This document shows, in pieces, positions 3,435 through 62,956 of a stretch of 64,000 nucleotides of DNA (its first letter is position 1; every line of letters starts with the position of its first letter). The notes under the pieces were generated by a model that had not been told where the DNA came from, ran no database searches, and worked only from the letters and a program-made list of their open reading frames with translations. A program made the translations under genes and the position numbers. The DNA is from a virus. The stretch is taken from positions 11,917 to 75,916 of the IMG/VR virus record IMGVR_UViG_3300042398_001156. One strand, written 5' to 3'.

Positions 3435-4764
3435 TATAACCCCATATTACTTGCACACTATAACTTGTAGTTGGATTGTTAGTAGAAACATTACCAGCAT
3501 ACCATGTAGGAGTAAACACGTTGTTTGCTGTACTACCTGCCCAACCTGCAGGCCTATTAACTTCTAAAACTCTTGTTTTAATAACTAAACGTTTGCCTAG
3601 CACTACAGGAAATGCACCAGCTTCAATTGTTGTTACTGAGTCAGGTATAACAATTTCAAATAACGACGGTGTGTTTGCAAAAGCATTAGCTCCTATAGTT
3701 GTTAAACCCTGGTTTAATAAAATTGTATGTCCTTTAAAACCATCAAAAGCATTTGCTTGAAGTTCTAAAATACTTTTAGGTAAATAAATACCTTGTGTTA
3801 ATAGATCAGGACTAGGTGCTGGTGGAGTGTTAATAAAATTAGTCTTGATTGTTTTAGCTTGAGTTCCACCAATATACTCCGGAATAATTAAGTTAACAAG
3901 AACAAGACGTGCAGCTGTCGAAATAGTAACTAACCCTTGAACAGTAACTTCTAAAGTATTAATAAAGCTCCAAAAAGCATAGAAGTTAAGATCAGCACGC
4001 ATCGGTACTTTTATTCCACCAGCTACTCCAAGTTGGTTAACTGTATAACCATTTGACGCAGTAACACCTGAAGCACGATGTTCTCTAGTCCAACCGTTAA
4101 AGGTATATATAAACTGTCCGTCTAAAGAAGCAAATACATTAAAACCTGCTGTTGGATATTTAATCGTAGCAATTTCATCATATAAATAAACTTTACTATC
4201 TATTGTAAAAGAATTACCTACGGGTATGTAAAGGTTGTTATTGTCAGGATAATAGTTAATTCTAAATCTAAATGTAGGAATATTTAAATTACGTTCATTA
4301 TGTTGGATAATACCTTGTGCTGTATCTAAACCAAAAAACACACCTTGATCCGGATTTTGTCTGAATTCAACAGGAACACTATTAAATTCTTTTTGGAACA
4401 TATCAAATAAACCTTCTTGCATCTCAAGTAAATACTTATTATAAATCGTAGTAAACTCTTCATCTCTTGCTAATATTTCCGAAGCAATGTATGGAATAAT
4501 AACACTATGAAAGTATTCTTCTTTAATAATTTCGTACTCTGCAATCGTTTGGTCGACGCCATTTGCATCTTTTTCAGTTTGAGGAATACTATACGTATCT
4601 GTAGGATTTTTTAAATATAAAGTAAGTTTAGGATACCTGGTGCCTAAAAAACTATTAATCTTTGTAATAGCTTTGTCAGCATCGTACTTAACATCAAACC
4701 AAGTAAGGTTATACCTTAAGGTTAATTGGTTAAGACGGTCAAGCAGTTCTTGTTGTGTTAGCAT
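3427..4764 (-). CDS. Putative head-tail adaptor-like N-terminal domain fused to an InlB B-repeat-like domain and BspA-type leucine-rich repeats
   Basis: Helical N-terminus (DADKAITKINSFLG...FHSVIIPYIASEILARDEE); YTFNGW...ADLNFYAFW (B-repeat-like); LPKSILELQANAF / LNQGLTTIGANAF / IPDSVTTIEAGAF (BspA LRR consensus). Lies between scaffold and tail genes. Confidence 0.6.
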   Translation of the reverse strand: MLTQQELLDRLNQLTLRYNLTWFDVKYDADKAITKINSFLGTRYPKLTLYLKNPTDTYSIPQTEKDANGVDQTIAEYEIIKEEYFHSVIIPYIASEILARDEEFTTIYNKYLLEMQEGLFDMFQKEFNSVPVEFRQNPDQGVFFGLDTAQGIIQHNERNLNIPTFRFRINYYPDNNNLYIPVGNSFTIDSKVYLYDEIATIKYPTAGFNVFASLDGQFIYTFNGWTREHRASGVTASNGYTVNQLGVAGGIKVPMRADLNFYAFWSFINTLEVTVQGLVTISTAARLVLVNLIIPEYIGGTQAKTIKTNFINTPPAPSPDLLTQGIYLPKSILELQANAFDGFKGHTILLNQGLTTIGANAFANTPSLFEIVIPDSVTTIEAGAFPVVLGKRLVIKTRVLEVNRPAGWAGSTANNVFTPTWYAGNVSTNNPTTSYSVQVIWGYNG

Positions 4765-4786
4765 TTCAAAAGGTCCTCACATTTTG

Positions 4787-4797
4787 ATTATAGCACA
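4787..4797 (-). promoter_or_regulatory. Extended -10 promoter (TGTGcTATAAT)
   Basis: TRTG + TATAAT just downstream of a terminator and upstream of the SD/ATG at 4764. Confidence 0.6.
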
Positions 4798-4825
4798 AAA
4801 GTTTTTAAACAATAGTTCAATTAAT

Positions 4826-4847
4826 AAAAACACACCCGAAGGTGTGT
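4826..4847 (-). terminator. Intrinsic terminator after scaffold gene
   Basis: Minus strand ACACACC-TTCG-GGTGTGT followed by a T run. Confidence 0.75.
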
Positions 4848-4855
4848 CTTTAGTT

Positions 4856-5785
4856 TTACTTCTTACGATTACTTGCTTCAGTCAGTAAGTCTGATAACGA
4901 TACGCCGTTGTTATTAATAGGTTTAGGTTGTGTGCTTTGTGCCGGATTTGCAACTGGTACTTTAGTTTGTCTCGCACGTTCTTCTTCCCATTTAGTTTTT
5001 GCTAGACCTACTGCGCTGTCAACTTGTTGTTTTAACAACTTATCACGGTACACAAGGATGTAAAGATCTTGCAAGTCTCCGCCTTGAGCTAACCATTGGT
5101 ACGGGTTTTTCTTTACAGACATTGCATCTTTAAAGAAGTTGTTGACTTCGCTACCTTTAATATTCATGTTTTGTTGAAGATTCGTAAGGGCTCGATCCAT
5201 TGTAATTTGAAGTCTTTGCTTTTGGATTTCAATCTTATCACGTTCAATACGATCAATTTCAGCTTGAACTTCAGGAGTAATGCCTTTAGCTTCAGCTTTA
5301 ACTTTAGTATCAGAAGTATTCATAGCTGTAGCTAAAGCTTCATAGTCCATCTTACCTTCCTTCATAAATTCTTTAAGTTTGAATTCATAAGACCCGGCAG
5401 TATAACGTTGAACTAATCCTTCAATCTTTTCTTTACCAGCTTTTTCAGCAGCATACTTATCCCGAATTTCTTTCATCGGGTTAACTTTGCCGTCTTTCTT
5501 TTCGTCTGGTTTAGCGTCAGCAGGTTTAGTTTCAACCGGTTTAACATCAACAGGTTTAACTTCAGGAGTTACTTCTGCAGGTTTTGCAGGCGTTGGTTCA
5601 GCTAGTTTAGCTTGAACTAATTGATCGGCTGCTTTATCAACAGGAGTTGCCGCATCAACTTTAGGTTGTTCAACCGGAGCTGCTGCTACTGGAGCCGGAG
5701 CTGGAGTTGGAGTTGGAGTAGGTGCGTTACCTGCTCCTTGACTTAACGCTTCTTGTAAACTAATTTTATTCTTTTGGTCTGCCAT
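4856..5785 (-). CDS. Putative capsid scaffolding protein
   Basis: Pro/Ala/Lys-rich disordered N-terminus, coiled-coil core, short C-terminal helix; lies in the morphogenesis cluster downstream of portal. Confidence 0.6.
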   Translation of the reverse strand: MADQKNKISLQEALSQGAGNAPTPTPTPAPAPVAAAPVEQPKVDAATPVDKAADQLVQAKLAEPTPAKPAEVTPEVKPVDVKPVETKPADAKPDEKKDGKVNPMKEIRDKYAAEKAGKEKIEGLVQRYTAGSYEFKLKEFMKEGKMDYEALATAMNTSDTKVKAEAKGITPEVQAEIDRIERDKIEIQKQRLQITMDRALTNLQQNMNIKGSEVNNFFKDAMSVKKNPYQWLAQGGDLQDLYILVYRDKLLKQQVDSAVGLAKTKWEEERARQTKVPVANPAQSTQPKPINNNGVSLSDLLTEASNRKK

Positions 5786-6301: not shown

Positions 6302-7496
6302 TAGTTACTCCTTTCTTTATTTCAGCCAGATATAACAACCCAATTGATCGACGACTAATTAGGTTTGTCATTAACTGTGTATCCATAAAGACATTACTAT
6401 AGTCTATTGCTAAAGGTACTTGTAATAGTAAGGGTGCAATTTTAGACACAGCATTGATAATTATCCAAAAGGGATCTTGTTGGTAAGAAGATACTGCTGT
6501 GACTGTAATAAGAATTGCAAACAAGAATGTATTTACAACTGTCCAAAGAACTTTAGTTCCTGCATCACGTACAACTCGACGTTCGTTACTATTAATAAGA
6601 GAGTAACTATCTACACTTACACCTTCATTATCACTTCCGTTATAAACAAACATAGGACTTATGTATTTAAAATATTTAACATAACCATCAATAACGTACT
6701 CAACAATGTAATCATCTTCTAGTAGTTGTAGCAGTCTTTCTTTTTTTCTTAAGTAACTCCATTCTTTCCATGAAAGTTTTCCTAAGTTTTTAAGAACAAC
6801 AGATGCTTCGTCTTTATTAACTTTAAGTTTATCAAAGTATGGTTTAAGTTTTTTTCGTATATGATAGTTTGCTTTGCGTTCTATCTTGTCAATTTTAAAT
6901 TTAACATTAATTTTATGTTGTTGTATTTTACGGAAGCGATTAAAGATGTCATGTATCCACGGTTCAAACGTAACTGGGTCTAAATGTTTTTCTGTCATCT
7001 CATCCACTTCTTTACTTAAGTCAACAAACTTTTTGTACTTTTCTTTTGATAATGTCACAAGATAGTTAAATAAACTATAAAATAATATAATTGCGGAACC
7101 TAATGAAATTGTTGTTGTTATATACCAGAATGGATACTCAAAGAAAAACTTAGTGTTGACTTGAACTTTAAAGTTAACAGGAATTTCTACTTCAAACGGA
7201 TTTGTTCCAGGGTTTACAATAACGTAATTAGCAACGTATAAATTGATCGCTTGTTCTGAATACCACGTAATACGATAGTTAACGTTTTCTTCTTTCATTG
7301 TAAGATATTCACCATACGTTGTATCAACAGCTCCGACTGTATACTGTGCTTGACCTTCAATAACAGGAAGCACACCGTTAATGCCTAGAACAACAAGTAA
7401 TGAAAGTAATAGAAAAATAACGCTACGTGACTTTTTATTTGTAAGTACGTTGCTTGTACGTTCTATTAAAGCTTCAATCTTTGTTTGTTCTGGCAT
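6285..7496 (-). CDS. Multi-pass membrane protein, unknown function
   Basis: About 4 hydrophobic segments (VIFLLLSLLVVLGI; ITTTISLGSAIILFYSLF; VLWTVVNTFLFAILITV; FWIIINAVSKIAPLLL). Confidence 0.7.
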   Translation of the reverse strand: MPEQTKIEALIERTSNVLTNKKSRSVIFLLLSLLVVLGINGVLPVIEGQAQYTVGAVDTTYGEYLTMKEENVNYRITWYSEQAINLYVANYVIVNPGTNPFEVEIPVNFKVQVNTKFFFEYPFWYITTTISLGSAIILFYSLFNYLVTLSKEKYKKFVDLSKEVDEMTEKHLDPVTFEPWIHDIFNRFRKIQQHKINVKFKIDKIERKANYHIRKKLKPYFDKLKVNKDEASVVLKNLGKLSWKEWSYLRKKERLLQLLEDDYIVEYVIDGYVKYFKYISPMFVYNGSDNEGVSVDSYSLINSNERRVVRDAGTKVLWTVVNTFLFAILITVTAVSSYQQDPFWIIINAVSKIAPLLLQVPLAIDYSNVFMDTQLMTNLISRRSIGLLYLAEIKKGVTNAKTN

Positions 7497-30449: not shown

Positions 30450-32438
30450 ATGGTCAAATATCTTATCTATGATACTGAAACCTCAGGTCTCAATATCATT
30501 TCCGACAAGCCGTTTATGTTTCAATATGGATTGGTTGATCACAACTTAGAACTATTAGAAACCAAATGGTTTCACGTGAAAGATACTGCAAGTCGTGATA
30601 TGTTTGTACAACATTTGAATAGTATTCAAACGATTGTCGGACATAACATTAAGTTTGACGTGCACATGGCCATCAATCATGGTATCGATTCAAAGTTATT
30701 TAGTAATAAAAACTTCATTGATACCGCTGTATTAGCCAGACTAGTACTAGACCATGACATTCAAACAGACAAAACATTTTCTGTTGCGTTAAAAACACTA
30801 GGTGTTCGATACTTAGGTATTGATTCTAACCAAGAAGAACGTTCATTGAAAATGGAACTTAGCCGACTTGTGTCTGAACACAAACAAAAGATGAAAGATT
30901 ATTTTACAGCCAATAACTTATGGGATACAAAACAATCTGCTACTAATCAAACCAAAACACTTAACCATATATATAGCGATTGGAATAAAGTATTTCATTT
31001 GTATCCACAATACACAGCAATAAGAAAACAATTCTTACAAGCTAATCCAGAACCAACCTATGAACAATGTTCTAACGTTGTGACTTATGGTCTTACTGAT
31101 ATTAGATTGACCCATGGTTTACTTAAACTATGGTTCCCTAAAGTGGTACAACTTCAACAAGTTGAAACACTTAAACGTATTAGTAATGCAACCTATCCAC
31201 TTGTTGTGATGGAACGTCAAGGTCTTACTGTCGACGTTAAACAAGTACTTAAAGATAGAGCTAAAATCGTAGATGAATTATCTAAGACAAAGATTGTTGA
31301 TACAAGAACGAACACTGAGTTATCCATTGGTCAACACGCTAAGCTTAAAGACTTATACGAATATGAATCCGGTGAACAATTAGAAAGCTCTGATAAAGAA
31401 ACACGTAGTGAGATCGAAGATGTATCTCCAGCTGCTAAAGCAGCAAATTACATAGCTAAATTAGATAAGTATCTTAATACCTATGTTCGTTCTATATTAG
31501 ATAAGCTTACAATATTCAACGGTGAGTACCGTGTCTTTACCCAATACAACTTAGCCGGTACTATTACAGGTCGTTTATCTTCTGACTTCCAACAGTTCCC
31601 TAAAGAACCAATTACATTAGCCGATGGAACAGAAGTTAATATTCGTAGTTGGTTTGTAGTCCCAAGCAAAGACAAGTACATGTTCTACTTTGACTACAGT
31701 CAAATGGAACTACGCTTGCAATGTGAATGGACTAACATTGTAAATGGTGAGCCAGACATTAACATGGTCCGCGCTTTTACACCATACAAATGTATACAAC
31801 GAGATGGTAAATACTATCTTGAAGAAGACCAAACTAAAGAGTGGAAGCCCACTGACTTACATGGCTTGACTACAAAGAACGCATTCCCAGGCATCGATGA
31901 AACACATGCTGACTGGAAGAAATACCGACAACTCGGTAAGCGTACGAACTTCGCAGTTAACTATGGCGCTGCTGCACCTAAGATTCAACAAGCATTAAAG
32001 GTAGACTTTCCTACTGCACAAGCATTAGTACAAGGTTATCGTAAAGCTTTTGCTGGTGTTGTCGCCTTTGGTAAGTGGATTAGTAACCGTGTTTATATCA
32101 CGGACAATATCCCTAACCTATTACTGCGTCGATACTTTAGCCGCAACAAACATCAACTACAAAACTGGTTGGTGCAAGGTAGTGGCGCAGACATTCTATT
32201 ACTAAAGCTCAGAGAGATCTATGAGTATATTAAATCTAAACCACACTGGAAGTTTATGATTACAGTGCATGATGAATTAGGATTTGTATGTTCTGATATC
32301 CCTGAAGCCCAGCTTAAAGAAGAAGTAAAATATATACAAAACTTAATGACACATAGCATGACTGCTGTTGATATCATTAGTGATGTAGAATACACCAAGA
32401 CCAAATGGTCAGAAAAGGATGAGTGGCATGGAGTTTAA
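30450..32438 (+). CDS. polA: DNA polymerase, family A, with 3'-5' exonuclease
   Basis: YDTET, GHNIKFD, TGRLSS, DYSQMELR, KRTNFAVNYG, VQGSGAD, VHDEL. Confidence 0.95.
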   Translation: MVKYLIYDTETSGLNIISDKPFMFQYGLVDHNLELLETKWFHVKDTASRDMFVQHLNSIQTIVGHNIKFDVHMAINHGIDSKLFSNKNFIDTAVLARLVLDHDIQTDKTFSVALKTLGVRYLGIDSNQEERSLKMELSRLVSEHKQKMKDYFTANNLWDTKQSATNQTKTLNHIYSDWNKVFHLYPQYTAIRKQFLQANPEPTYEQCSNVVTYGLTDIRLTHGLLKLWFPKVVQLQQVETLKRISNATYPLVVMERQGLTVDVKQVLKDRAKIVDELSKTKIVDTRTNTELSIGQHAKLKDLYEYESGEQLESSDKETRSEIEDVSPAAKAANYIAKLDKYLNTYVRSILDKLTIFNGEYRVFTQYNLAGTITGRLSSDFQQFPKEPITLADGTEVNIRSWFVVPSKDKYMFYFDYSQMELRLQCEWTNIVNGEPDINMVRAFTPYKCIQRDGKYYLEEDQTKEWKPTDLHGLTTKNAFPGIDETHADWKKYRQLGKRTNFAVNYGAAAPKIQQALKVDFPTAQALVQGYRKAFAGVVAFGKWISNRVYITDNIPNLLLRRYFSRNKHQLQNWLVQGSGADILLLKLREIYEYIKSKPHWKFMITVHDELGFVCSDIPEAQLKEEVKYIQNLMTHSMTAVDIISDVEYTKTKWSEKDEWHGV

Positions 32439-34958: not shown

Positions 34959-35069
34959 CTAACTAAACTTTTTATTGGGGTAGTCGGGTAAGACAATCTA
35001 TAAACCTTATGGGCTAAAGATTGTAACGTGGGTTCAACTCCCACCTACTCCACCAAAAAGTTTAGTTAG
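34959..35069. repeat. Perfect 15-bp inverted repeat flanking the tmRNA-like RNA
   Basis: CTAACTAAACTTTTT (34959-34973) ... AAAAAGTTTAGTTAG (35055-35069). Confidence 0.85.
34977..35055 (+). ncRNA. 79-nt tmRNA-like tRNA domain (Ala identity) lacking the mRNA-like domain
   Basis: Acceptor GGGGTAG/CTACTCC-A-CCA with G3:U70; stemless D-loop; ACAATCT/AGATTGT helix; AAC linker; T-arm GTGGG-TTCAACT-CCCAC. Confidence 0.75.
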
Positions 35070-38100: not shown

Positions 38101-41100
38101 TTCGTTACTAACGAGTCTACTTATTTGGTCGTTAACACTTTCTTTAGAACGGTTGTTATAAGATTTTTCCTTTTCATTTTTTAATGATTTAAATTCTTTA
38201 AATGAATCTGTTATTTGTTCTATTAATTCTTCAATAGTAATAGGATCTTTTAGTACATCTAAATTTTCATCTTTTAAAAACTGACTAACAGATTCAGTTT
38301 CTAAATCAGAAGCTTTCGAAATACTTGCAAGTGCTTCATTGTAATCATTCCCATAAGGATTACTTAATTTACTTGCAATAATATGTAAGTTATCTTTTGT
38401 TGCACGTGTGCTTGTACTATTCTTAACTGTATTAATACGTTGAGATGTTTGCCCTTCTTCTCCAATTGTAACGTACTCTACATCAACTTCTTTAGATCCT
38501 AAAAAGAAATCTTTAGCGTGTTGATATTTAGATGGTAATAACTCTCTTATGTATATACGTTGTTTATAACCCAAAGATTCTATAATAGTTTTATAAAGAA
38601 AATAACTGTCAGCTAATAAACGAATTTCTTTCATATCTAATTTAGCATTACTATCTGAAGTAACTGCATATCTTGCTTCTATTTCTTTAAAGGTTCCGTA
38701 AGCCATATTAAAGATACGGAATAAACGGAAGCCAACAATACGTAAAGAAACTAATCTTCCTAAAAAATTATTAACTGAATCTTGTTGGCCATTAATTGTA
38801 ATAGTTTTATCTAAAGCTTTTTCTAAATCTTTTTCTTGATTAAATATTTTTGAAACTTCAACAATTATATTTAAGTACTGATTATAAACTGAGTCTGGTA
38901 CGTAAATGTCACCGAACATTTCTTTTTTAGAGTATTCATTTATTAATAAATTTGCGGCGTTTAATGCGCTTGCTTCTGATCTATAGCTACCTTGTAATTG
39001 TGTACTTTTAATTTCAATACGTTTTTCTTTTAAAGCTTTTAACTCTTTATCTTCTATTAATAATTCTTCCATTTCAAAAGTATCTTTATCCATACCAATA
39101 GCAATTGCATTATCGTGGTCATCATCAACACCAAGTGTAATGTCTCTTATACCTACTTTGTTAGCACTTGCTAATACACGGTTTTTAAACGCACGTAAAT
39201 ATTCACTTACAAGCATACGAATAGGTCCATGTTTAGCAATACCAATAATGTTATTAGCTTCTATAGATTGAGTACCTATAGTACCACGATCAACAATAGA
39301 TTGATTTAAATAATTAGAGGCGTGTCTTTGTATTACGTTTTCTAATTTTTCTTTAGTTTTCTTTTTAGCTTTAGGATTTATAGCTTTTTTAAATTCACGA
39401 ATAGCATCTTCGTTTCTTGAAAAATAAAATACATATAAGTATTGTTCATCTACTTCGTCAAATTTATCTACAACAATACCGTTCTTTTGATAGCCTTTAT
39501 ACTTTTTAATAAACTCTAAATAGTGTGGGTTTAATGAAGTTGCATTTTTATAGAACGTATCAAAGTGTCTTACTACAGCATCAACTTTATTAGGACCACT
39601 CATTACTTCCGCAAATGAAGTTAATTCTTTAACAACTAAAGCAGCAGCATATAATTTTTTATATAAGAAAACAAGTACATCTTCTGCATCTTGTTTAAAA
39701 TAATCTTTATGTTTAACTGCATCTACTGCATCTATATAAATTTTTGTTTCTGGGTTATACGCAACTTCTTTAAACCAACCGTTGTAAACTTGATCAGTAA
39801 AATTAGGTAACATTTGTTTAGCAAAATTATTAGCGTCTTTGTTAATTTTTTCTTTAAGATCTTCAAAACTTAATCCTGCTTCTTGATCTTTTAAAGCAGT
39901 TGAATATATTGTGTTTCTAAATGTACCCAATACTTTTTCAAATGTTAACGTTAATGAATCTACAGAAACAATATTTCTTAAAGGATCTTTAAAACTATTC
40001 CAAACATTACCTGTTTGATCTCTATTAATATTTGGGAATATGCTTAACGTAGATTTAGAAGTTTGAATTTTTCTTACACCACCGAATATAAGAATACCGA
40101 CTTTAGATCCTTGGAAACGTGTAACCGTTTCATTACGTCCAACACTGTATAATTTTCTAAAGAATACTTTTTTTATTATTTCAGCGTTAGCTTTTTCTTT
40201 TCGGTTTCTAATAATTTCATCTACGCCCGTTTTAATAATATATTCTTTATCTTTAACTGATAAATGTTTTTCTAAAACTTCACCATTAACAACATTAAAA
40301 TCTTTACGGCTAACATATTGTGTTAAATCATATTTTTTAGCATCAATAATTTTTTGGAATAAATAAGAACGTGCAGCAATATTGAAATATCTTTTATCTT
40401 CTAATGCTTTTTTAACTGCAGCTGGATCTTTGTAGTCTTTTAATTCAAAGTCAGGCGCTGTGTTTAAGTTAAAAAGTTTTCTTATTGCAACGTTTAAAAA
40501 TTCTTTTTGTTCAGTTTCAGTCCAGTCTAAAGTTTCTGGTATAACAAGATTGTTAATATCTTTTTGAATACCTTCGTATAAAGAACCATATAATTCTGAC
40601 CATTTATATGTTGTTCGTATTTTTTCAAAAACGGATTTACCTACAGAAGTATATTCATAACCAATGTTTTGAATACGTTTATTGGTTTTAACATCAGGTA
40701 TTAATTCTTTACGTATTTTTTCTAAGTAGCCTTCTACATATCTTCTTTCTTTTTTAATTGGGTCCCAAGTAAAGTACCCTTCATCGTAATAAGATTCTTT
40801 AGTGGCATCATCTCGATCAAAACGTCCATCAATAAATTGTTGTTGGCTTAAAGCAATCATACCAATAGTATCACCATCGTTATCAGCACCCATCATTTTG
40901 TACATATATGGGTTAGCTTCAATAGCTGCGTGGTCGTGGTAACCTATAATTTTTAAAGTAGGTGTAGAGTTAGCATCTTGGATAGGCCACCGTGCTGTTA
41001 GTACCCAACCAAATTTACGCCCTAACTTATTCTTATAAAAGCTAATAGTATTGTTTTTATTAACAGTGTATAAAATATTTTCAACACCGTTAATACTGTC

Positions 41101-44100
41101 ATTAGTCATGCCTTGTTTATGTAAATGAATAATAAATGCTTCTAGTTCTTCTTTGTTTTTTAAACTTATTTCGTAATTTAATCCTGTATCTTTGACATTA
41201 ATACCACTAAAATTTTGTTTCTTTGCAGTGTAATTAAAAGCGTTAATAAGTTTTAACCAGGTGGTTTCGTCAAGTTTTTCTAGTTGTAACCAGTCTTTCT
41301 TTTTACTTAAAGTTTCCCAAGAGTCTCTAGAAGTTCGTAAATTACCTAAACTTAAATCAATGTTGGCAAGTAATTGTTGTCTAACACCAGGGTGTTTACG
41401 ATATAAATATGTATAGATAGCACCTGAGTCAGATGTTAAAAATTCTTGAGCACGATTCCGTGAAGCTAAATTAATTTCTTTTAATTTAATATCAAACCAT
41501 GATTTATCTTTTGCGTTGCTTTCAAGACGCATGTTAAAGAACATCATGTACTCTTGTGCGTTATCAATTAAAGGTGTTTCTGATCTTGCTTTAATATTAT
41601 CTACGGTTTTTTTAATATCGTAATTGCCATTACTTAATTTAATAGCATAAGCTTCAAGGAACTTTTCAATGCCATAGCTTTGAATTTCTGAGTAAATACT
41701 TATTTCTTTTCTAAAGTCTTGATCTAATAAAACTTTAAAGTCTACACCTTTCATACCTAAAATTGCAACAAAAGAAGGCGTTACAGGTACACCGCCTTCA
41801 ACGTTACCTTTTATATCACGATTAAATATTGCTAACTCAGGGTTACTGTTAAGCCTTGCGTTTACAGACATCTTTTCTGCGGTGTGATCAGCATCAGCAA
41901 TCACATAGATTTCACCGCGTTGTATGTCTAAACCTTTAAAGTTATCAATTACAACATCACCTTTGTCTGTAACACGTTCTATAGTAATGTCTTCTGTAAT
42001 AACATCATAAGTAAGATCACTAAATATTTTTACTTTATTGACAGAGTCTTCGCCAAATAAATCTAATAGAATATTATAATAATCTTCACCAGAATCAAGG
42101 ATAATTTTTCCTTCTTTAATAACAAATAAATCTTTTAATTCTTTGTCTTTAGACGCAAGTATACGTAAGGCACGTTCAGTTAAACCATATTTTTTAATAA
42201 ACGCTTTATTTAAAATAGCAGATGTTTTATTAGGATTATCTAATAATTCTTTACCACGTTTTTGTAACTCAGAATTAACTAAATATTTTCTAATACTATT
42301 CATCGTTTGTTCTAGTACAGCACCCCCAGCACCACGTTGTTGTACCGAAGATTTATTAGCAATAATACTAACACCAAACTTTTCACGTATCCCATCTTCA
42401 AAACGAATAGCACCTTTAAATCCCCACATGCCTAACCAAATTTTCCAGCCTTCATTAGCACCTAAAATTTTAGCTACTTTTCTATCTATAATAAGTGCGT
42501 CTTCATAAGCCGCAGGCATATCCATAAAGCCTATTTCTAAATTCATACCTATCTTGTGAAATATGTTTCGTTTATAAAATTCAAATTGTTTTTCTGTCAA
42601 TTGATTAGGAGTAAACGTATTAATAAGTGTGCCATTTTCTGCTCTTCGTTCTAATAAATCAGTTAATAAATCACCCGTAGCAGGGTTATCTTTAATAGCT
42701 TGTTCAAAATATAATTCTAAAAGCTCTTCAAATTTTACAGATCTATTTAACTTGTCTTCAAAACTGTAGATGTTATTAATTAAACCATACGGTGTATACT
42801 CTAAATATTGTTTATTGTAAGGTAAAATAATACGAGCAGGATTTGTGTTAAGTGTATGTGGCATATCTACGTTAGTAGGTAAATATATAGGTACAGATTT
42901 ACCGGAACTTCCTTCTGCAGATTTTTCTAAATCAAGCAAGACTCCAATCTTGCTGGCACCCTCACTGGTCCAATCTATAACCATGTTTGCACTATAAGTA
43001 GAAGGTACTAATAACAAGTATTTACTTGGGTCATTGCTTACAAATCTAGAAAGTGTACGATCTGCTAATCCTTGGTAAATTGTTTTAGTGTTATTTATTT
43101 TTTCTTTTTTACGTGCATAGTTATGAACATCTAAAAATCTAAAGAATCTATTTTTTAGTACTTGAGTCATGTTAATAACTTCTAAAACAGTATCAGGTAT
43201 AGCATCATCAAAGACTTCGTCTTTTAAAAACTTTTCTGTAAGAACCTTACCACCTCTAACACCTTCATCATTTAATTCAAATAAGCCAAGCTTTCTGTAT
43301 TTTTCATAATGTGATAACACACGTTTAATACTTTCAAAGCTGTGGTCTACACCATCTTCTAAATACACAATATTTTGTGGTAGTTTAGTATGACCAAGTT
43401 TTACTTGACCCTTAGCATCTTTGTAATTAAAGAAACGTTTTAACCAATCGTTAATATCTTCATCTTCTTTAGGTCCTTGTAGTTTAATTGTTTTAACTTC
43501 TAATGTTTTACCAGCTTCAATATAAGTGTAATTAAATTCAAAGGATACTTTACCACCTTTTAAACTAAACTTATAACTATTAACAACGCCATTAAAATTA
43601 TCAAATAAATTAACGATAAAAAAGTTTTCTGTAGGTCTTCTTATTAAAGCAACATCTTCTTTAATAACCAGTGCTTTACGATCTACACCTTCATGTACAT
43701 CTTTATACACACGGGTTACGTTAGGAATGTTTAATTGTTGAATAAACTCTAACCCTTCTTTTTGATTAGCTAAATTTTCTAATGAATCTAAACGTTCTTC
43801 TTTTGCTAGGTTTTCAATGTTTACTTTACCGCCATTTAAAATAGTATAAATGTGATCAAATTCCATTTCTTTTTTAATTGCATCAAGTTTCTTAACTCTG
43901 CTTAAAACTTCTACAAACTTATTAGTAACTGCTTCTGTGTTAACTTCTAAATCAGTTTGTTTTCTGTCAAATTTTAAACGGTTTAATAAATCAATATTGT
44001 TATTAACGTAATCTAATTCATCTTTAATAGCTAATGCAACAAGTGTACGCATGTTTAAAGTATCTATTTTTCCAACAAGATTATCTTTTTCTTTTAATAA

Positions 44101-47100
44101 ACTAAGTAATTTTGTCACACCTTTATTTTTACTAAACAATTCTACTAAGTTAGCAAATCGTTTGTCTTGAATAATATTTGTGTTTTCTTTTAATTTTAAT
44201 ATATTAAAAAATTTATTTAAGATATTAATTAAATCAGCATCATCAATTTTTAAATCAGGAATTTTTTTAAAGTCAGCACCTAGTACTTCAGGTCCAATGT
44301 TATTCCAAGTCTCTACTAATTCTTGAAGCTTAACAATTGCTAAAGCTTTAAACTCTTCAGTCTTTTGATTTATTATATCTTCTATTTTTTTATCAAACGT
44401 AGAACTTGCTGCAACTTTACCGTTGTTTAAAAGAGTAATCATAGTAGTAAGTTCTTGACTACGTTTATTATAAGCGTCTAATATTTTATTTTTTTCTGCA
44501 GCATCCTTGATGCTTATAATAGTAGAATCAATAAATGTAGCTAAAAGTTTTTTAACTTCAGTAGATTCAATATCTATTTTTCCATTAGGACTTTCTTCAA
44601 TTATGCTCATTAACTTTTCTAAAGCTTGCACACTGTTGTTTAATTCTAATTGTAAGTTATCTAATTCTATTTTTAATAGACTATAGTTTGTTATATTCGT
44701 AGAACTATAACCATATTTATCTTCATTAAGTTTTTCTTTTAGAACTTTATTAATTCTATACGTTGTATTTTTTGTAATCTCTTGTAACTTTTTAGAGGTT
44801 TTTCTAAGAATTTCAAAAAGAGTTTCTTTTTTAACAACACCATCTTCTACTTTCTTTGTTAAATCTTCAATTGTTTTTTCTACTTCTTTATATTCTTTTA
44901 ATGTTTTTGCTTGGTCAGTAGCTAACTCTGTTAGTTTTTCTTTATGAGACTTTCTACCAGAAGTTTCAATAAAAGCAATAAATCTAAGTACTTGTTGTAC
45001 TTGTAAATCAATTGAAGTATTTGCTTCGTTATAATTAAAGTCTGTTACTTGATCATCAGCGATGTTTAATTCTTCTTTAACAGCATCTGTAATTAACTGT
45101 CTTACGCTTGTTAATTTAGGATCACCAGCAATACTATCTACACCTTGTTGTATCTGTGCAGTAAATTCTTCTTCCATTATTTTTAATAACTCATCTGTGT
45201 AAGCTAAAATTTTAGCATCTTCTCGTATGTTATGTCTTAACATCCAACCTTCATTAAAATATTTAAATATAGCATTTCTAATATCTAAACGTTTAATAGG
45301 ATCTTTTTCATTAATGTAGTCAAGTACTAAACTTTTTATAGTATTATATTGTGATTTTTCTCCTGTAAATAAACTTACTTTACGACCTTGATTTGTTACT
45401 ATACTTAAACGACTTTCAACATTTTTAATAACATCTTGTATTAAAATGTTTTCTATTTCACGATCAAACTTACCTATAGCTGTTAAGTCAGCTTTGTTTA
45501 AAGGTATACCTTTTTTTAATTTTTGATTAATTCTAGTTATTTCTTTTTTATTAGCAGCAATTAAACGTGCAGCATCTCCACGTGTAACAGCGTCGTTAAC
45601 ACTAGCGTACTCCATGCGTTCTCTTATAGCTTTAGGATCGTTATCTCTTATTAATTGGTAATATAAGTTTACTTTTAAAGTACTAGCAAGACGTTGAATA
45701 AATTGATTGTAGTTAGGAAAGTCAAAATCTTCACCGTTATGTGCAATAATAGGTACATTTTTAGGCGCTGCGTTTACTTCGTTTATAAAAAGACGGGTAA
45801 CTTCTATGTCATTACGCTGACCTATTACATACTTAATAGTAGTATCTATACGTTTATCTAATTCATCTTTTATTGTTTTATTTAAAAGATTATAGTACTC
45901 ATCTTGATCTGTATTTCTCCAAACTTTTTTAGTTTTAGTTGGGTCAGCATTAACCCAAGCTTTAAAGCCTTCCATTTCTTTTACATACATACGTCTTTGT
46001 TGTTCATAAAACCGTGTTAATTCAGGAGACAATTTAGTTTCTACTTTACCGTTTACAAGTTCTTCTGTTTTACCTTCAATAAATATTTGATTTGTCATAA
46101 ATTGATTTAACACATCAAAAGATAATTTACCTTTAACGTTTTTAAATTTTAATATAGTTAATTGATATGGAATTTTATTACCGTTACTATCTGTTACAGT
46201 TTCCATGTCTAAAATAATAAACTCTTCAGGTAAGTTTTGACCTGCTTTTTTCATCTGGGCCATATAATTAAAAGCAGTAATAACACCATCTGTTATACCA
46301 TTATGTAGCCCTATATTTTTTTCACCGTCAGTATTAGTATCTTTAATTAGTTGTACTAATTTATCATAACCACCTATGTAATATTGACCGGCATCTTTAA
46401 TAATTTTTTCAATAACCTCAACACTAGTCTGTTCAACATTAATTTTATTTAAGTTTCTATACGTATCTAAATTACTATTACCATAAGGCTTTTCTTCTTT
46501 TCTAGCACTTATAAGGTTATCATAACGATTCTGTATACCCTTCTTATCGCTTTCAGCTTTTTCTAATAACTCATTTAATTTAGCAATACGTGCAGGTACT
46601 TCTGTAGAGTAATCTTTTAATGCTTCTTTTTCTTTTTTTAAAGCAACAATTTTATCTGTTAGTTCTTTTCTTTGCGCAATTAAATCATCGTGTTCTTTTT
46701 TATATAAAGTAGTATCATTTGATAATATGTAAGACGCAAGATACTCATCTGATATTTCTTTATTTGTTTCAGCACTTACTTTTTTTGCAACACGTTTTAA
46801 CACAGTAGTAGGATCTTGATTACCTTCTGTTTTTAAAACATTAATGACATTATTACTATTTTTAATATTAACTTTATTTTTTGTTATACGACTTTTTAAT
46901 TCTATTAACGCTTTTATAGTCTGTTCTAAATCATAATTCTTTTGATTAGTAATTAAATTATTTATAGTTATTTCAAATTCACCTTTAAGTTCTTTTAATT
47001 GGTCTTTACTATATTTATCTTTAGTAGTTTCTACAACAGTAGATTTATTAATTGCGTCTTCTACTTTTTTAAGTTCATCTAATATATATTCTTTTTGTTT

Positions 47101-50100
47101 AAATGAATTAATATCCATGTTGTCAAAAGGATATGATTTTAATTCTAATAATCTTTCTAATACTAATAAAACTTCTCTTGGTATTTCTATAGTTGTAACG
47201 TTACTTCCTGTACCAACAACTTCAAAACCTTCTTGTATAGAAGGTTGAGCTACGCCTCTGTTTGCTTTTTTTCTTTTTTCTAATTCTTTTTCGTCCGATT
47301 TAAAATCAGATTGTTTTACAAAATAAAGTTTTTCTGAGCTAACATAAGTTATTGGTATTTGTAAAGATGTTGACCAGCTACCAGTTGGTTCATCTCCACC
47401 ACGTACATATAATCTTTCTGTACTACTATTAACTATGTTTTTTATTTTTGTTATAAACGTATTTAATTGATTTCTTACATAAGGATTTTCAATTAAAAAT
47501 TTAAGTATATCATCGTTTAATAAATTTCTTTTTTTCCAATCAATCTTACTGTATTCTTCTTCTTCTTTATTTAATGCTTCTCTAAACTTATCAAATAGTG
47601 GATGACTTTTTCCAAAGGCATCAAACTCTGCTTGGGTTTTGTCAGTGTTTGGTATTTCACGGCCACTATCTACCCAGTCTTTTTTTATTTGTTGATAAAA
47701 ACTTTCTCTTAAATCTGAAGCTTCTTCTAATTTTTCAAACATTAAAACAATTTCTTTTTCGTAAGAAGTTATTTTACTTTCTATTTCTTTTAAACCTTCT
47801 TCTTTTCCAAGTTTTTCTTTAACTTGTAAAACATTTAAGCTACTTTTTATTTTAAAAGAACTTAAATAATTGCTGTCTTCTTTATTAATAGTAGCAATTA
47901 ATTGTTTAGTTAGCGTTAATAATCCTTGAAGTGTAAATTTCTTTAAGTAAATAAGTTTGTTTAATTCTGTTTTGTAACGTTCTTTTGTTATATCTTTTTT
48001 ATTAATTCCTAACTTATGTAAATCATAATTAATTTTAAGTTGCGCGTATGTTGCCCACAAAAATTTACGATATGAAAGCTCATTAGCTCTATCATGTTTT
48101 TTAAATGTAAATGTTTCTTTTTTATTTTTAACATCTTGTATAGCTTTATCAATAACAGTTTCATAATTATCAAAATCTTCCAGTCCAAAAGTATTAAAGT
48201 ATTCATCTTGTGCTTGTGCTAAATAATTTTCTGCTTTATTTAAGTATTCACTTTGTGATTTTAAAAGAATATCCGTACTTTTTTTATCTAGTGTAAGTGA
48301 ATCTTTTAAATCTTTTTGTTCTTTTGCAGCAATTTCTTTAGCAGCACCTTTAAAACTTCCATAGTAAGCTCTTTGAATTTTATTAACATGATATCTAGCG
48401 ATAGCTAACTGTCTTCCTTTACGACTTAAACCATCTTCTGTATCACTAATAATTTTATCACCGTCTGTAAAATATTTATTAATGTTATCAATTCTATTTT
48501 CATTATTTTTAATAATGGATTCATAACCTTTTCTATAAGTACCCCAGGTCTTTTTTGAAACTTTAGAATCTTTTGGATCAACTCCATTAATTAAAGTTTT
48601 TTGAAGTGTATTAATTGTATTAATTTTATCTTCTGCATTTTTAATAAAGTTATTATAATCTTCGACTGTTTGTATATTAATACCTAATTCAATTAATGAT
48701 TTAACATTATTTTCAAAAGTATCTTTTTTATATGTATTTCTAATTTTTGCAAATGCTTTATATTCTTTTGTAGATAACCACGTTTTTGCTTCAATTAAAT
48801 CATCTCTTATTTTATCGTACAGTTCAAAAAACTTAACAGACTTTTTATTTTTAAATTTGTTTATTTTATCTTGGTTTTCTTTTTGAGCCTTTGTTAATAA
48901 TTTTTCATTGAACTCTTCGTATTCTTTAATAAGCGAAGGTGTATTTTCATACACAGCAATTAAAATTTTTTCTTTTCTGTCTTTTGCTTCTTTATCAATA
49001 GTAGTTATTTCATTATTTAAAATAACTTGAGATGATTCTAAAATGTTTATTTGTGTTAATAATTCTAATTCTTTTTTATTTATAGCAGCAAGATCTGTAT
49101 TACTAAAATTAAACATAGATTTTAAACTATCTAATCTATTTGTTAATGTTACAGCTTCTTCTTTTAATTTATTGACAGTATTAGTAATTAATTCCCAGCT
49201 TACAATTGTAGGTAATTTTTTAAAATCATAATCTTTATCTCCAGCTACACCTTCTTCTATAGTATCCCATAACAGTCTTTCCCCTTTATCAAGATTTAAT
49301 TGACTGCTTAAAATTTTTGTAAGGTCATTAATATTTTGAATACGTTTAGTTACTTCACTTCTTTCCTTAGGAGTCATTGCTTCTAAAACAGCTTTAGGAA
49401 AAATAATATTAATAGCTTTTCTAATTGATCCTGCTGTTTCAATTTGATTAGCAAGGCTAGTTAACTTTGAAATATTATAACGTTGCTGTGCGTCTGATAT
49501 AGTTTTTATTTGATCTTCAAGATAACGCAATCTAGTTTGTGCTTGTGCTTTTGTTTTATTGTCAAACTTATTGATAAGAATATAACCCATAACTGCTTGT
49601 ACAAACTCTGGGGTTACATCAAGTAAATGACGACGAGAATTAAAATAATTAACTATGTCTTCTACTTGTTGGTTTATACGTTTTAATTGTTCTGGATCAT
49701 TTATAGAATCAACATATTTTTTAAAATCATTTTTATAAATAGTAATAAATTCTTTACGTTGAGATATATTATTAATAGCAATAGCTATTTCTAAAAAACG
49801 AACAAAGTTAATATCTTCTACTTCTGGTTTAATTAACTTTAATAGATTTGTATATCGTTGCATTAATGCCGTGTAATCAATATTTCTAGAAGGAACTTCA
49901 TCAATATTTTTAGCGTACTGTTCACTTGTGTAATGAAAACTAATATCTCCTAAAGCTTGTTCAATTATTTTAGCAACAGTTGCATTATAGTTTGGATTTG
50001 AATTAGGTATAAATATAACTTTAAAAGTATCACGCATTTGTTGTAATATAATTTTGCTAATATTATTAGGTGTAGTTAAAATATATTTACGTTCAGGTGT

Positions 50101-60967: not shown

Positions 60968-62956
60968 CTACTTGATGTTACTTCCTTTGTCGTTACCTTG
61001 TGCGCCTTCTAAAACATCACGTTCTAGAGCATCCACTGCAGGTTTAATTGCACGTGGGCTTAAGGCTAACAACGCAGCAAAGTTAGCGTGGGTATTTACA
61101 GCCACATCTCTAATAAACACGAAGGTTCGGATTTCAGTTGTAGTAGGTTGTGTAGTTAAAGCAGTCACACCATCAACATCTTTAACCGCTGTACCATCAG
61201 CAGCTCTTACAGTAATTGTAAAAGGTTGTTGGATAAATTGACCTTTTTTATAGGCAGCGTTTGATACGTAGAATGGAACAGGTGCGTTGTTACCTTGAAC
61301 CGCTGGGGATCCAGGAACGCCACCTAAGTTAACACCGTCAACGCGTAGTTTTTGAGCACCATCAAGACCAATTGAGTTCTTGTTGTTTTGTTCGTACGCT
61401 TGATCTTCCGTAAGGAATGATGGTTGATATGGTGCGAACACAACTTTAGCACTGAGTGCTGCAAGTTCAGCATGTTTAGGAATACCATAGGTAACCACAA
61501 CAGCTTCAGGACGCTTGATGGCTAAACCGAAACCATCAACTTTAAAACCAATAGATTGACGTTGGTCGATTGGGTCAGCAACACCAGATGAACCTAAAGA
61601 TTTAATAATAATCTTTGGAGCGTCTGACACGCCTTCCATGACTAATTTGACTAAAGCTTCTGCACCGAAGAGAATACCACGGTGGACAGGAAGTTGCATA
61701 AATTCACCTGCGTCAATTAAAGAATTAATTGCGGCAAGGTCTGCACCTGAAGTAGCACCAGATGCACTAGTAACAGCTTCTAATGCTGTATAGCCTGGGA
61801 CTAACACACCAAAGCTGTTAGCAGTAAGTGTACGAGTAGATTTCATAACACGGCATCTAGCAGGAATTGCTTCATCAAGTGAAGCTTGAATGTTACCTGC
61901 AACTAATGTTGGGAATGTAGTCGTAGGAGTTGTTCCAACTTCCCATCTTACTAATTCTTCAATTGCTGAACCGTCTTTAAGATAAGAAGTTCCATTAACA
62001 TAAACCTTAGCTTTAACTTCTGTATTACCACTTCCGGCAATAACAAAGTCTTGGTGTACGTCTAAATAAAAGAACGTAGCGACAGTCGCTGAAACGTTTT
62101 GAACAGCATACAACCGAATGACTTCAGTAGCATCTGCTTTTTCATAAACACCTGGGAATTCAATATCAGGATATGCGAATTCATCCAACATGGTAGGAAT
62201 AAAGGTTAGTTCAAACATATCGAACGTTTCACCTGAAGTCCAAAGTTTACCAGTCGTTTGTTCGATTTCCATATATTGTTTAATACGTGGGTCGTCGATT
62301 AAACCATTGATGAATTCTGCGGAGCAAACATAATTATATTTACCACCGACAGGCTTAACCATCATGCGTTTCATACGAGCAACTAAGAAGCGAAGATCGT
62401 CTAACGTAATTTCATCACCAAATGCAATTGAACCAAAGCCTGCTTTAAATGCAGCAAAGAATTCATTTGGGGTAGCTAACCAGGTTTTACGTGCGTAAAG
62501 TTCCTTGGTTTGGTTTGCAACTTCACCGTATTGAACGGAGCGTTCTGCAATAACTTCATTGACAATACTTAAGTCAATCTTATCGGTGTATTCTGACCAA
62601 CGTCCGAACGAGAACACGTTACCAACTTCAATAGTTTCGTAAGCATGTTTGTCTGGTGCTGGCGGAATACCTTCCTTTAAGGGAGTCAAGCTTGGAGTTA
62701 ATCCAGCCCAACGACGGAAACGAGCGACATTGTCTCCTCTGCGAATCGTTAAAGATTCTGCAGCTTTTAAGTGTACGTAGTTTTCCTCACCGTACTTGAG
62801 GGTGTCGATTAAAATCGTGTTGTAAAAAATGTTGGGATCAAACCCAGCACGATACACACCATTTTCATCGTACAACATACCGATAACCGTGTTCACGTTT
62901 TGTAAACTGTGTAACGGTAACAGTGCTGTTGCGGCGCCTGTCTTATTAATGGCCAT
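60968..62956 (-). CDS. Major capsid protein, N4-gp56 family, with internal insertion and C-terminal extension
   Basis: FRRW..L.P...PLKEGIPP; FGRWSEYTD; ILFGAEA; IIIKSLGSSGVADPIDQRQSIGFK. Confidence 0.9.
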   Translation of the reverse strand: MAINKTGAATALLPLHSLQNVNTVIGMLYDENGVYRAGFDPNIFYNTILIDTLKYGEENYVHLKAAESLTIRRGDNVARFRRWAGLTPSLTPLKEGIPPAPDKHAYETIEVGNVFSFGRWSEYTDKIDLSIVNEVIAERSVQYGEVANQTKELYARKTWLATPNEFFAAFKAGFGSIAFGDEITLDDLRFLVARMKRMMVKPVGGKYNYVCSAEFINGLIDDPRIKQYMEIEQTTGKLWTSGETFDMFELTFIPTMLDEFAYPDIEFPGVYEKADATEVIRLYAVQNVSATVATFFYLDVHQDFVIAGSGNTEVKAKVYVNGTSYLKDGSAIEELVRWEVGTTPTTTFPTLVAGNIQASLDEAIPARCRVMKSTRTLTANSFGVLVPGYTALEAVTSASGATSGADLAAINSLIDAGEFMQLPVHRGILFGAEALVKLVMEGVSDAPKIIIKSLGSSGVADPIDQRQSIGFKVDGFGLAIKRPEAVVVTYGIPKHAELAALSAKVVFAPYQPSFLTEDQAYEQNNKNSIGLDGAQKLRVDGVNLGGVPGSPAVQGNNAPVPFYVSNAAYKKGQFIQQPFTITVRAADGTAVKDVDGVTALTTQPTTTEIRTFVFIRDVAVNTHANFAALLALSPRAIKPAVDALERDVLEGAQGNDKGSNIK

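Follow-up and report, generated by a model that had tools for sequence, protein, structure and literature searches.

A probable DnaQ-like exonuclease domain with a possibly permuted active site in a giant phage protein carrying an RNA polymerase-type loop

Virion-delivered two-barrel RNA polymerases (RNAPs), giant proteins that are encoded in the virion gene block and bear a DxDGD-type catalytic loop, are known from the crAss-like phage phi14:2 (gp66) and from Thermus phage P23-45 (gp96; PMC10770324). The RNAP gp66 of phi14:2 transcribes single-stranded and denatured DNA efficiently, and hardly double-stranded DNA, in vitro (bioRxiv 10.1101/2020.03.07.982082). Our literature search found no description of a DEDD- or DnaQ-type exonuclease domain within a virion RNAP or an ejection protein; neither the P23-45 preprint nor the crAss-like genome survey PMC7886860 contains the word “exonuclease”, and “nuclease” is absent from the gp66 preprint. 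Among the DnaQ-like exonucleases, PolC-exo, epsilon, Cas2-DEDDh and DinG-exo represent DEDDh modules that are fused to, or work with, a larger nucleic-acid enzyme. Their motifs follow one another in the order ExoI, ExoII and ExoIII (I-II-III) on a five-stranded sheet, and they match the Pfam family RNase_T. Here we address a region of 64,000 nucleotides of virus DNA (the window), positions 11,917 to 75,916 of the IMG/VR virus record IMGVR_UViG_3300042398_001156. The largest frame of the window is a minus-strand open reading frame (ORF) of 8437 codons, P0001. A model that was given the letters and translations alone had proposed that the encoded protein contains a DEDD 3'-5' exonuclease-like domain upstream of an RNAP core; we refer to this proposal as the sequence-only reading. 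Like phi14:2 gp66 and P23-45 gp96, the window protein is a giant of the virion gene block with a DxDGD-type loop; unlike them, it is 2-4 times longer, and it has no detectable sequence similarity to either.

We regard amino acids (aa) ~4698-4955 of this protein as a DnaQ-like (DEDDh-type) 3'-5' exonuclease domain that has diverged strongly, has probably kept its activity and would take its ExoIII residues from H4728 and D4733, upstream of ExoI, giving the order III-I-II. This composite reading has, in our estimate, a little more in its favour than against it, and its parts differ in strength. The DnaQ-like identity is very probable, and it is well supported because the motifs sit on the correct secondary-structure elements, their key residues are invariant, and the fold matches point the same way. 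Retention of catalytic activity, judged from the residues that have been kept, appears fairly likely. What is new is the probable relocation of ExoIII, the sharply bounded island of conservation in which the domain lies, and its strict co-occurrence with an RNAP-type loop in a freshwater phage lineage with proteins of 7-8.4 thousand amino acids (kaa).

The homologues provide the first line of evidence. Word-index searches yielded few of them, namely one shorter protein and three giants (P0014, P0015 and P0016), while a HMMER pass over 1.84 billion representative sequences gave 11 relatives and no more. Further giants are P0022 and P0024 and the IMG/VR loci L001, L002 and L009. A metagenome contig scan with the ExoII pattern and two genome contig scans (one with P0018, a relative described below, and one with the RNAP profile) confirmed no relatives, and tblastn against 50,697 phage records left the domain unmatched. 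There are eight other uninterrupted giant homologues, from >5392 to 7788 aa in length, and the giants are 24-40% identical to the window protein in the domain region. Nine giants were aligned across 1,650 residues, and a column was called invariant when the same residue stood in 9/9. The 25 invariant columns all fall inside aa 4672-4940 (window 45667-46473). There are none in aa 4360-4671, the ~310 aa upstream, and none in aa 4941-5572, the ~630 aa downstream, until the RNAP module begins near aa 5573. Both the ExoI and the ExoII motif are retained in all nine. D4760, E4762, T4763, P4773, Y4774, H4916, G4918, F4921 and D4922 are kept in every homologue that covers them; counted over 13-16 homologues, H4728, N4729, D4733, D4760, E4762, T4763, H4916, G4918, F4921 and D4922 are invariant. 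The acidic residues, whose conservation had been named as a check on the proposal, are thus the same in all homologues.

The strings on which the sequence-only reading was built are where it had placed them (Table 1). EEFIILDMETV, with the numbering D4760/E4762, is exact at aa 4754-4764 (window 46195-46227), PYQLTILKF follows it, and VPIIAHNGEDFDFP is found near aa 4915. ExoI, which in DEDDh enzymes is a D-x-E on beta-1, appears as the invariant D4760-M-E4762-T on a predicted strand. ExoII, a (H-N)-x2-3-(F/Y)-D where beta-4 gives way to the next helix, appears as AHNGEDFD, at the corresponding place in both structural models. The giant-protein ExoII is of the TREX-type form AHNGxx(F/Y)DFP. The long insertion that had been described between the two motifs is real as to its 155 aa in the window protein, but ~40 aa of it are particular to a lineage: this helical insertion is common to the window protein and L009 only, and the ExoI-to-ExoII spacing in other homologues is 117-127 aa. 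Between the motifs there is also a conserved FYEQQ helix motif, which possibly serves substrate binding.

Table 1. Features of the giant protein in window coordinates (minus strand).
Feature	Residues (aa)	Window position	Strand	Basis or remark
Giant ORF P0001, holds the exonuclease-like domain	8437 aa	35173..60486	-	ORF listing
Proposed exonuclease domain	~4698-4955	45622..46395	-	Conservation island, AlphaFold2 models, DEDDh structure matches
ExoIII-like motif (putative) LHNGITDGVITAFNYMAQ, H4728 and D4733	4727-4744	46255..46308	-	H-x4-D spacing; start of helix
ExoI, strand beta-1, EFIILDMETVT, catalytic D4760 and E4762 (putative)	4755-4765	46192..46224	-	Invariant D, E, T; predicted strand
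Strand beta-2, PYQLTILKF, invariant P4773 and Y4774	4773-4781	46144..46170	-	Models, alignments
Helix motif FYEQQ, F4826 and Q4830 invariant	4826-4830	45997..46011	-	Alignments
Lineage-specific helical insertion	~4838-4880	45847..45975	-	Common to L009 only; pLDDT 54-70 in model 1
ExoII, end of beta-4 and start of next helix, VPIIAHNGEDFDFP, H4916 and catalytic D4922 (putative)	4911-4924	45715..45756	-	Invariant A, H, G, F, D
RNAP-type metal-binding loop ADNDGDT; context, outside the domain	6534-6540	40867..40887	-	1775 aa after ExoI

Profile searches point to the same family. When a profile of 51 positions around ExoII was compared with every PDB sequence, the top 28 distinct matches were TREX2 and TREX1 (E 0.0055-0.04), and they sit exactly on the TREX ExoII, with IvAHNGkrFDFsn facing LVAHNG(D/F)(R/D)YDFPLL. 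Match no. 29 is a chain named exodeoxyribonuclease III (E 0.076), and exonuclease domains of B-family polymerases are also found (E ~0.8). The full-region profile picks the TREX1 ExoII too, at E ~0.6. In hhalign comparisons with five E. coli DEDDh domains (epsilon, Orn, the ExoI enzyme, RNase T and ExoX), the ExoI motif falls on the ExoI motif with a pairwise E of 0.02-0.04, and IVAHN is placed on ExoII. The likeness to TREX is close at this point: the giant-protein consensus IVAHNGxRFDFxN is nearly identical to the ExoII of TREX1, LVAHNGDRYDFPLL, and TREX2, LVAHNGFDYDFPLL, and shares with them the extra residue between HN and (F/Y)D. There are also differences. Sequence similarity to TREX is detected at ExoII only, the H-x4-D of the giant domain precedes ExoI whereas that of TREX is C-terminal, and in the giant domain long helical inserts separate beta-3 from beta-4, with no beta-5 predicted. 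Moreover, TREX is a dimeric enzyme of ~230 aa, whereas the giant domain is embedded in a phage protein of 8.4 kaa.

A structural check had been suggested for the proposal, and an RNase H-like core is indeed predicted, with DEDDh exonucleases as its best long matches. Two AlphaFold2 models were made, one of the window domain (model 1; predicted local distance difference test score, pLDDT, 78.2; predicted template modelling score, pTM, 0.72) and one of the most distant relative, L001 (model 2; pLDDT 80.4, pTM 0.70). The layout is alike in both: beta-1 with the D-x-E, beta-2, beta-3, a helical insert, a short beta-4 that closes with AHNG, and a long helix whose first residues are F-D. Four strands of the five-strand sheet (order 3-2-1-4-5) are confidently predicted in the right chain order, together with flanking helices and without beta-5. 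With VIA-align, model 1 matches PolC-exo 2p1j (Z 5.9, 106 aa, 20% identity), Cas2-DEDDh 8fyc (5.5), the ExoI enzyme 1fxx (5.4), DinG-exo 9ii8 (5.0), 3'hExo (5.0), epsilon 1j53 (4.7), REXO2 (4.7), TREX1 (4.7) and ERI2 (4.5); TREX1 structures score Z 4.5-4.7 against the model core at 18-20% identity. Model 2 gives 8fyc (5.0), 2p1j (4.8) and 9ii8 (4.6, 23% identity), and its best Foldseek match is 2p1j, at E 0.022. PolC-exo, epsilon, Cas2-DEDDh and DinG-exo are the best structural matches over the ExoI-to-ExoII part, and DEDDh exonucleases are the sole structural matches longer than 100 residues, all of which cover that part. In a Foldseek search of BFVD no match reached E <= 0.001, and two phage “exonuclease” entries stood at E 0.05-0.08; look-alikes in the ESM Atlas were unnamed viral clusters only, with scores <0.9. 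The predicted fold may be taken as corroborating evidence, and it is not decisive alone.

The sequence-only reading could not identify ExoIII. No invariant candidate follows ExoII over 630 aa, but one probably lies upstream of ExoI, at H4728-x4-D4733. The motif there, (L/I)HNxxxDxx(I/V)T..NY at aa 4727-4741, is the best-conserved of the whole region; its H4728, N4729, D4733, N4740 and Y4741 are invariant, and D4733 stands 27 residues before the ExoI aspartate D4760. It has the DEDDh-type H-x4-D spacing and a threonine at D+4, as in RNase T and ExoX, and its identity to the ExoIII motif of epsilon, LHGALLDAQILAEVYL, is 38% in an alignment that is not significant. Among RNase H-like proteins of the exonuclease clade, the catalytic helix at the C-terminal end lies alongside beta-1 in antiparallel orientation (Majorek et al. 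2014, PMC3985635), and therefore its C-terminus adjoins the N-terminus of beta-1. In the models, the helix of the upstream motif (pLDDT >90 in model 1; in model 2, mean 77 over residues 41-50 and 93 over residues 51-60) is joined to beta-1 by a linker of 7 residues. D4733 lies ~14 helical residues before the end of this helix and D4760 ~5 strand residues into beta-1, which would put the two at about equal height in the predicted structure. The most economical reading is probably a circular permutation to III-I-II with loss of beta-5. That ExoIII has been relocated upstream of ExoI in this manner is an interpretation of motifs and models to which we give slightly better than even chances. The string “permut” is absent from the 2014 survey of the RNase H-like superfamily (PMC3985635). 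When the family profile, artificially permuted or native, was aligned by hhalign with the five E. coli domains, permutation brought no gain, and the only local matches were those of ExoI and IVAHN. After ExoII, the string NLYYQLIRD was considered as a Y-x3-D of the DEDDy kind; it was rejected, as its acidic position and second tyrosine vary among homologues.

Several observations weigh against the interpretation as a permuted DEDDh exonuclease. ExoIII of DEDDh enzymes lies C-terminal to ExoII, and in the nine giants no invariant residue follows ExoII over 630 aa. The upstream motif scores 10.0 against ExoII (HNxxxD) and 9.2 against ExoIII, neither alignment being significant, and a profile of it found no matches in the PDB. 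As the motif fits ExoII and ExoIII about equally, sequence alone cannot settle the permutation. The strand beta-5 is not predicted in either model, bar one bridge residue in model 1. The Z scores of 4.6-5.9 are in the range that the tool calls possibly a mere common arrangement, unrelated helical fragments score as high as the DEDDh matches, and the Foldseek E-values are 0.01-0.2. Within ExoII, N4917 is swapped for glycine or phenylalanine in three relatives. Scans of Pfam and PHROGs, and phmmer against the PDB, left the exonuclease domain undetected. Pfam PF00929 (RNase_T) gives no match even at E 10 in the window domain or in 11 homologues, in which the giant domain differs from PolC-exo and its kin, and the RNase_T model has no match in the whole virus record, though control genomes match. 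The ExoI profile had no matches in the PDB, and all database E-values for the domain are weak. Standard annotation is blind to this domain.

How the domain would work can be outlined by analogy with epsilon and TREX. Strand beta-1 would carry D4760 and E4762 of ExoI, with beta-2, beta-3 and the helical insert next in the chain; beta-4 would end with AHNG, and the following helix would begin with the F-D4922 of ExoII in its TREX1/TREX2 form. Most likely, H4728 would act as the general-base histidine and D4733 as the last aspartate, catalytic positions five and six; of the edge strand beta-5, at most a vestige would be left. As in epsilon and TREX, the carboxylates may bind two divalent metal ions, and the histidine may activate a water molecule, so that nucleotides would be removed singly from a free 3' end.

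The role of such an enzyme is tied to what else the protein contains. The C-terminal third carries an invariant block, LxxRxPxQD...MMGADNDGDxxGM, of which MMGADNDGD is invariant in all relatives. This block is 33% identical over 39 columns to the NRAPTLH...NADFDGD region of E. coli beta-prime (pairwise E 0.014), and the module has no sequence match in the PDB or PHROG; from its motifs, we consider an RNAP to be a plausible context for the C-terminal part. The sequence-only reading had put the exonuclease ~1100 aa upstream of the RNAP core. This is roughly correct, as the first conserved block of the RNAP module lies near aa 5573-6000, 650-1080 aa after ExoII. The co-occurrence of RNAP-type loop and DEDD-like domain that had been asked for is found in all nine giants, with the exonuclease 1,664-1,786 aa (ExoI to DNDGD) before the MGADNDGD loop. 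Between the exonuclease island and the RNAP module, aa 4941-5572 (window 43771-45666) form a fast-evolving, mostly helical spacer. We infer that the protein is packaged in the virion and that the exonuclease is delivered together with the RNAP. The sequence-only reading had named transcript proofreading or trimming, resection of a DNA end and anti-defence as possible purposes. A role coupled to the polymerase in the same chain is, in our view, the likeliest, at about even odds. The best candidate would be that the domain resects the 3'-ended strand where the genome end enters the cell and so exposes single-stranded template; it is favoured because the one two-barrel RNAP of a crAss-like virion that has been characterised transcribes single-stranded and hardly double-stranded DNA in vitro. 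The next candidate would be trimming of RNA 3' ends. In its boldest form, the proposal would be that this is the first circularly permuted DnaQ-like exonuclease (III-I-II, beta-5 lost), injected in a virion protein of 8.4 kaa and resecting the entering genome end for early transcription by the RNAP of the same chain; taken as a whole, this is a long shot.

The domain may also be an active exonuclease that has nothing to do with transcription, a possibility that we rate as unlikely while giving it real weight. It would then be injected cargo that serves host takeover or counter-defence by attacking free 3' ends, either of host nucleic acids, such as DNA ends, mRNA or tRNA, or of defence molecules, such as the DNA or RNA of retrons or other systems and linear oligonucleotide signals. 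Accessory enzymes are common in giant ejected phage proteins, enzymes of the TREX type degrade stray DNA, and the ~630 poorly conserved residues before the RNAP module make no direct structural coupling evident. Accessory counter-defence modules, however, are usually patchy among relatives, whereas here the distance to the RNAP loop is constant in the nine giants and the RNAP of this family was never found without the domain.

It is also improbable, in our judgement, that the domain descends from a DEDD exonuclease and has lost its nuclease activity. It would now bind nucleic acid or play a structural part in the giant ejection protein, much like the Maelstrom domain or other pseudo-exonucleases, and the upstream HN...D helix would have no bearing on catalysis. 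The missing canonical C-terminal ExoIII, the missing beta-5 and a divergence so extreme that Pfam and HMMER fail are all in keeping with such a fate, as is the presence of MAEL-domain structures among the weak Foldseek matches. Inactive derivatives, however, normally lose their catalytic residues, as Maelstrom did (PMC2628886), whereas in the giants the three classical carboxylates, the ExoII histidine and the H-x4-D pair are invariant at 24-40% identity while their surroundings drift.

An active DEDD exonuclease without permutation appears more doubtful. Another copy of the protein, or another part of the 8437-aa chain acting in trans, would contribute the fourth carboxylate and the general base, or the D/E/D would alone suffice, and LHNxxxD would be what remains of an ExoII-like strand-helix unit after a partial duplication. 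The slightly better alignment of the upstream motif to ExoII (IHNAAFD) than to ExoIII fits this, and EXD2, with its chimeric active site, offers a precedent for a contribution of ExoIII in trans: there, the ExoIII-bearing DEDD segment is reported to come from a non-canonical place (PMC6648332). EXD2 differs in that its arrangement is a domain swap between two chains of a DEDDy enzyme, and not a relocation within one chain. Against an unpermuted enzyme, there is no other invariant histidine, aspartate or tyrosine within 310 aa upstream or 630 aa downstream that could take part; the upstream region is helical or coiled and lacks a strand-rich ExoI-like segment, and so offers no second domain to which the motif could belong; and in both models the motif is on a helix and not after a strand. 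Finally, that the motifs are a mere coincidence, with no exonuclease-like domain, is very improbable: short motifs do arise by chance in a huge lysine- and asparagine-rich protein from a low-complexity AT-rich ORF, and the database E-values are weak, but chance would hardly account for invariance in nine or more divergent homologues within a sharply bounded island, TREX as the top family for the ExoII profile, the correct secondary structure under each motif in two models, and DEDDh folds recurring as the sole long structural matches.

The giant gene belongs to a 75.9-kb virus record, whose completeness CheckV puts at ~71%. Immediately upstream of the giant gene, on the same strand, is the major capsid gene (60968-62956), and the other genes of the record include those for a terminase, a portal-like protein, a primase, a helicase, PolA and the capsid. 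Metagenome runs from freshwater or lake samples, 24 in all (2016, 2023, 2024), contain DNA near-identical to window 44000-48000, whose guanine-cytosine content is 33%, and no RNA run is listed among the sequencing runs that contain it. Because near-identical DNA recurs in these 24 runs, the giant frame is no assembly accident, and the recurrence looks like a persistent lake phage population. ARAGORN found zero tRNA or tmRNA genes over the whole window, including window 34959-35069. A family-A DNA polymerase gene at window 30450-32438 (+) has an N-terminal exonuclease-type match of its own (phrog_192, aa 56-119), so the domain of the giant protein is not the replicative proofreader.

Some relatives differ in how the giant gene is laid out. 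P0018, a protein of 1,252 aa on an NCBI contig of 1,420,502 bp, carries LHN..D, DMET and AHNGKRFD and is without DNDGD. It is a piece of a giant gene on a genome-sized contig, and it could be the mark of a prophage or a lead to the host, the contig size being that of a small-genome bacterium, or else its frame could have been broken by another genetic code. The GTDB representative genomes did not yield it. Short domain “fragments” also occur on long contigs, namely P0003 (522 aa on 79 kb), P0002 (231 aa on 14.9 kb), P0007 (727 aa on 11.5 kb) and P0005 (424 aa on 14 kb). Some relatives must therefore have a broken giant frame, perhaps through stop-codon reassignment, frameshifts or assembly errors. 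In a MAFFT alignment of whole giants, the window segment EKIIKD.G.YY.G.YD.LV (aa ~4690-4720, window ~46330-46420) was paired with a second, better copy elsewhere in P0014 and not with the local one, which hints at internally repeated modules in the giants.

If the domain is inactive, or if the upstream motif is non-catalytic, what is left of the finding is a new freshwater phage lineage with a diverged nuclease-like module. If the proposal is true, a nuclease fold that is among the best studied would gain a new topological variant, a DEDDh site ordered III-I-II, and this order would account for the failure of standard profile annotation to pick up such domains in phage giants. As to how virion-delivered two-barrel RNAPs reach a usable template in the cell, a built-in 3'-5' exonuclease offers a testable answer, through end resection or else RNA 3'-end processing, and the present analysis identifies a freshwater phage lineage in which the coupling of exonuclease and RNAP can be put to the test.

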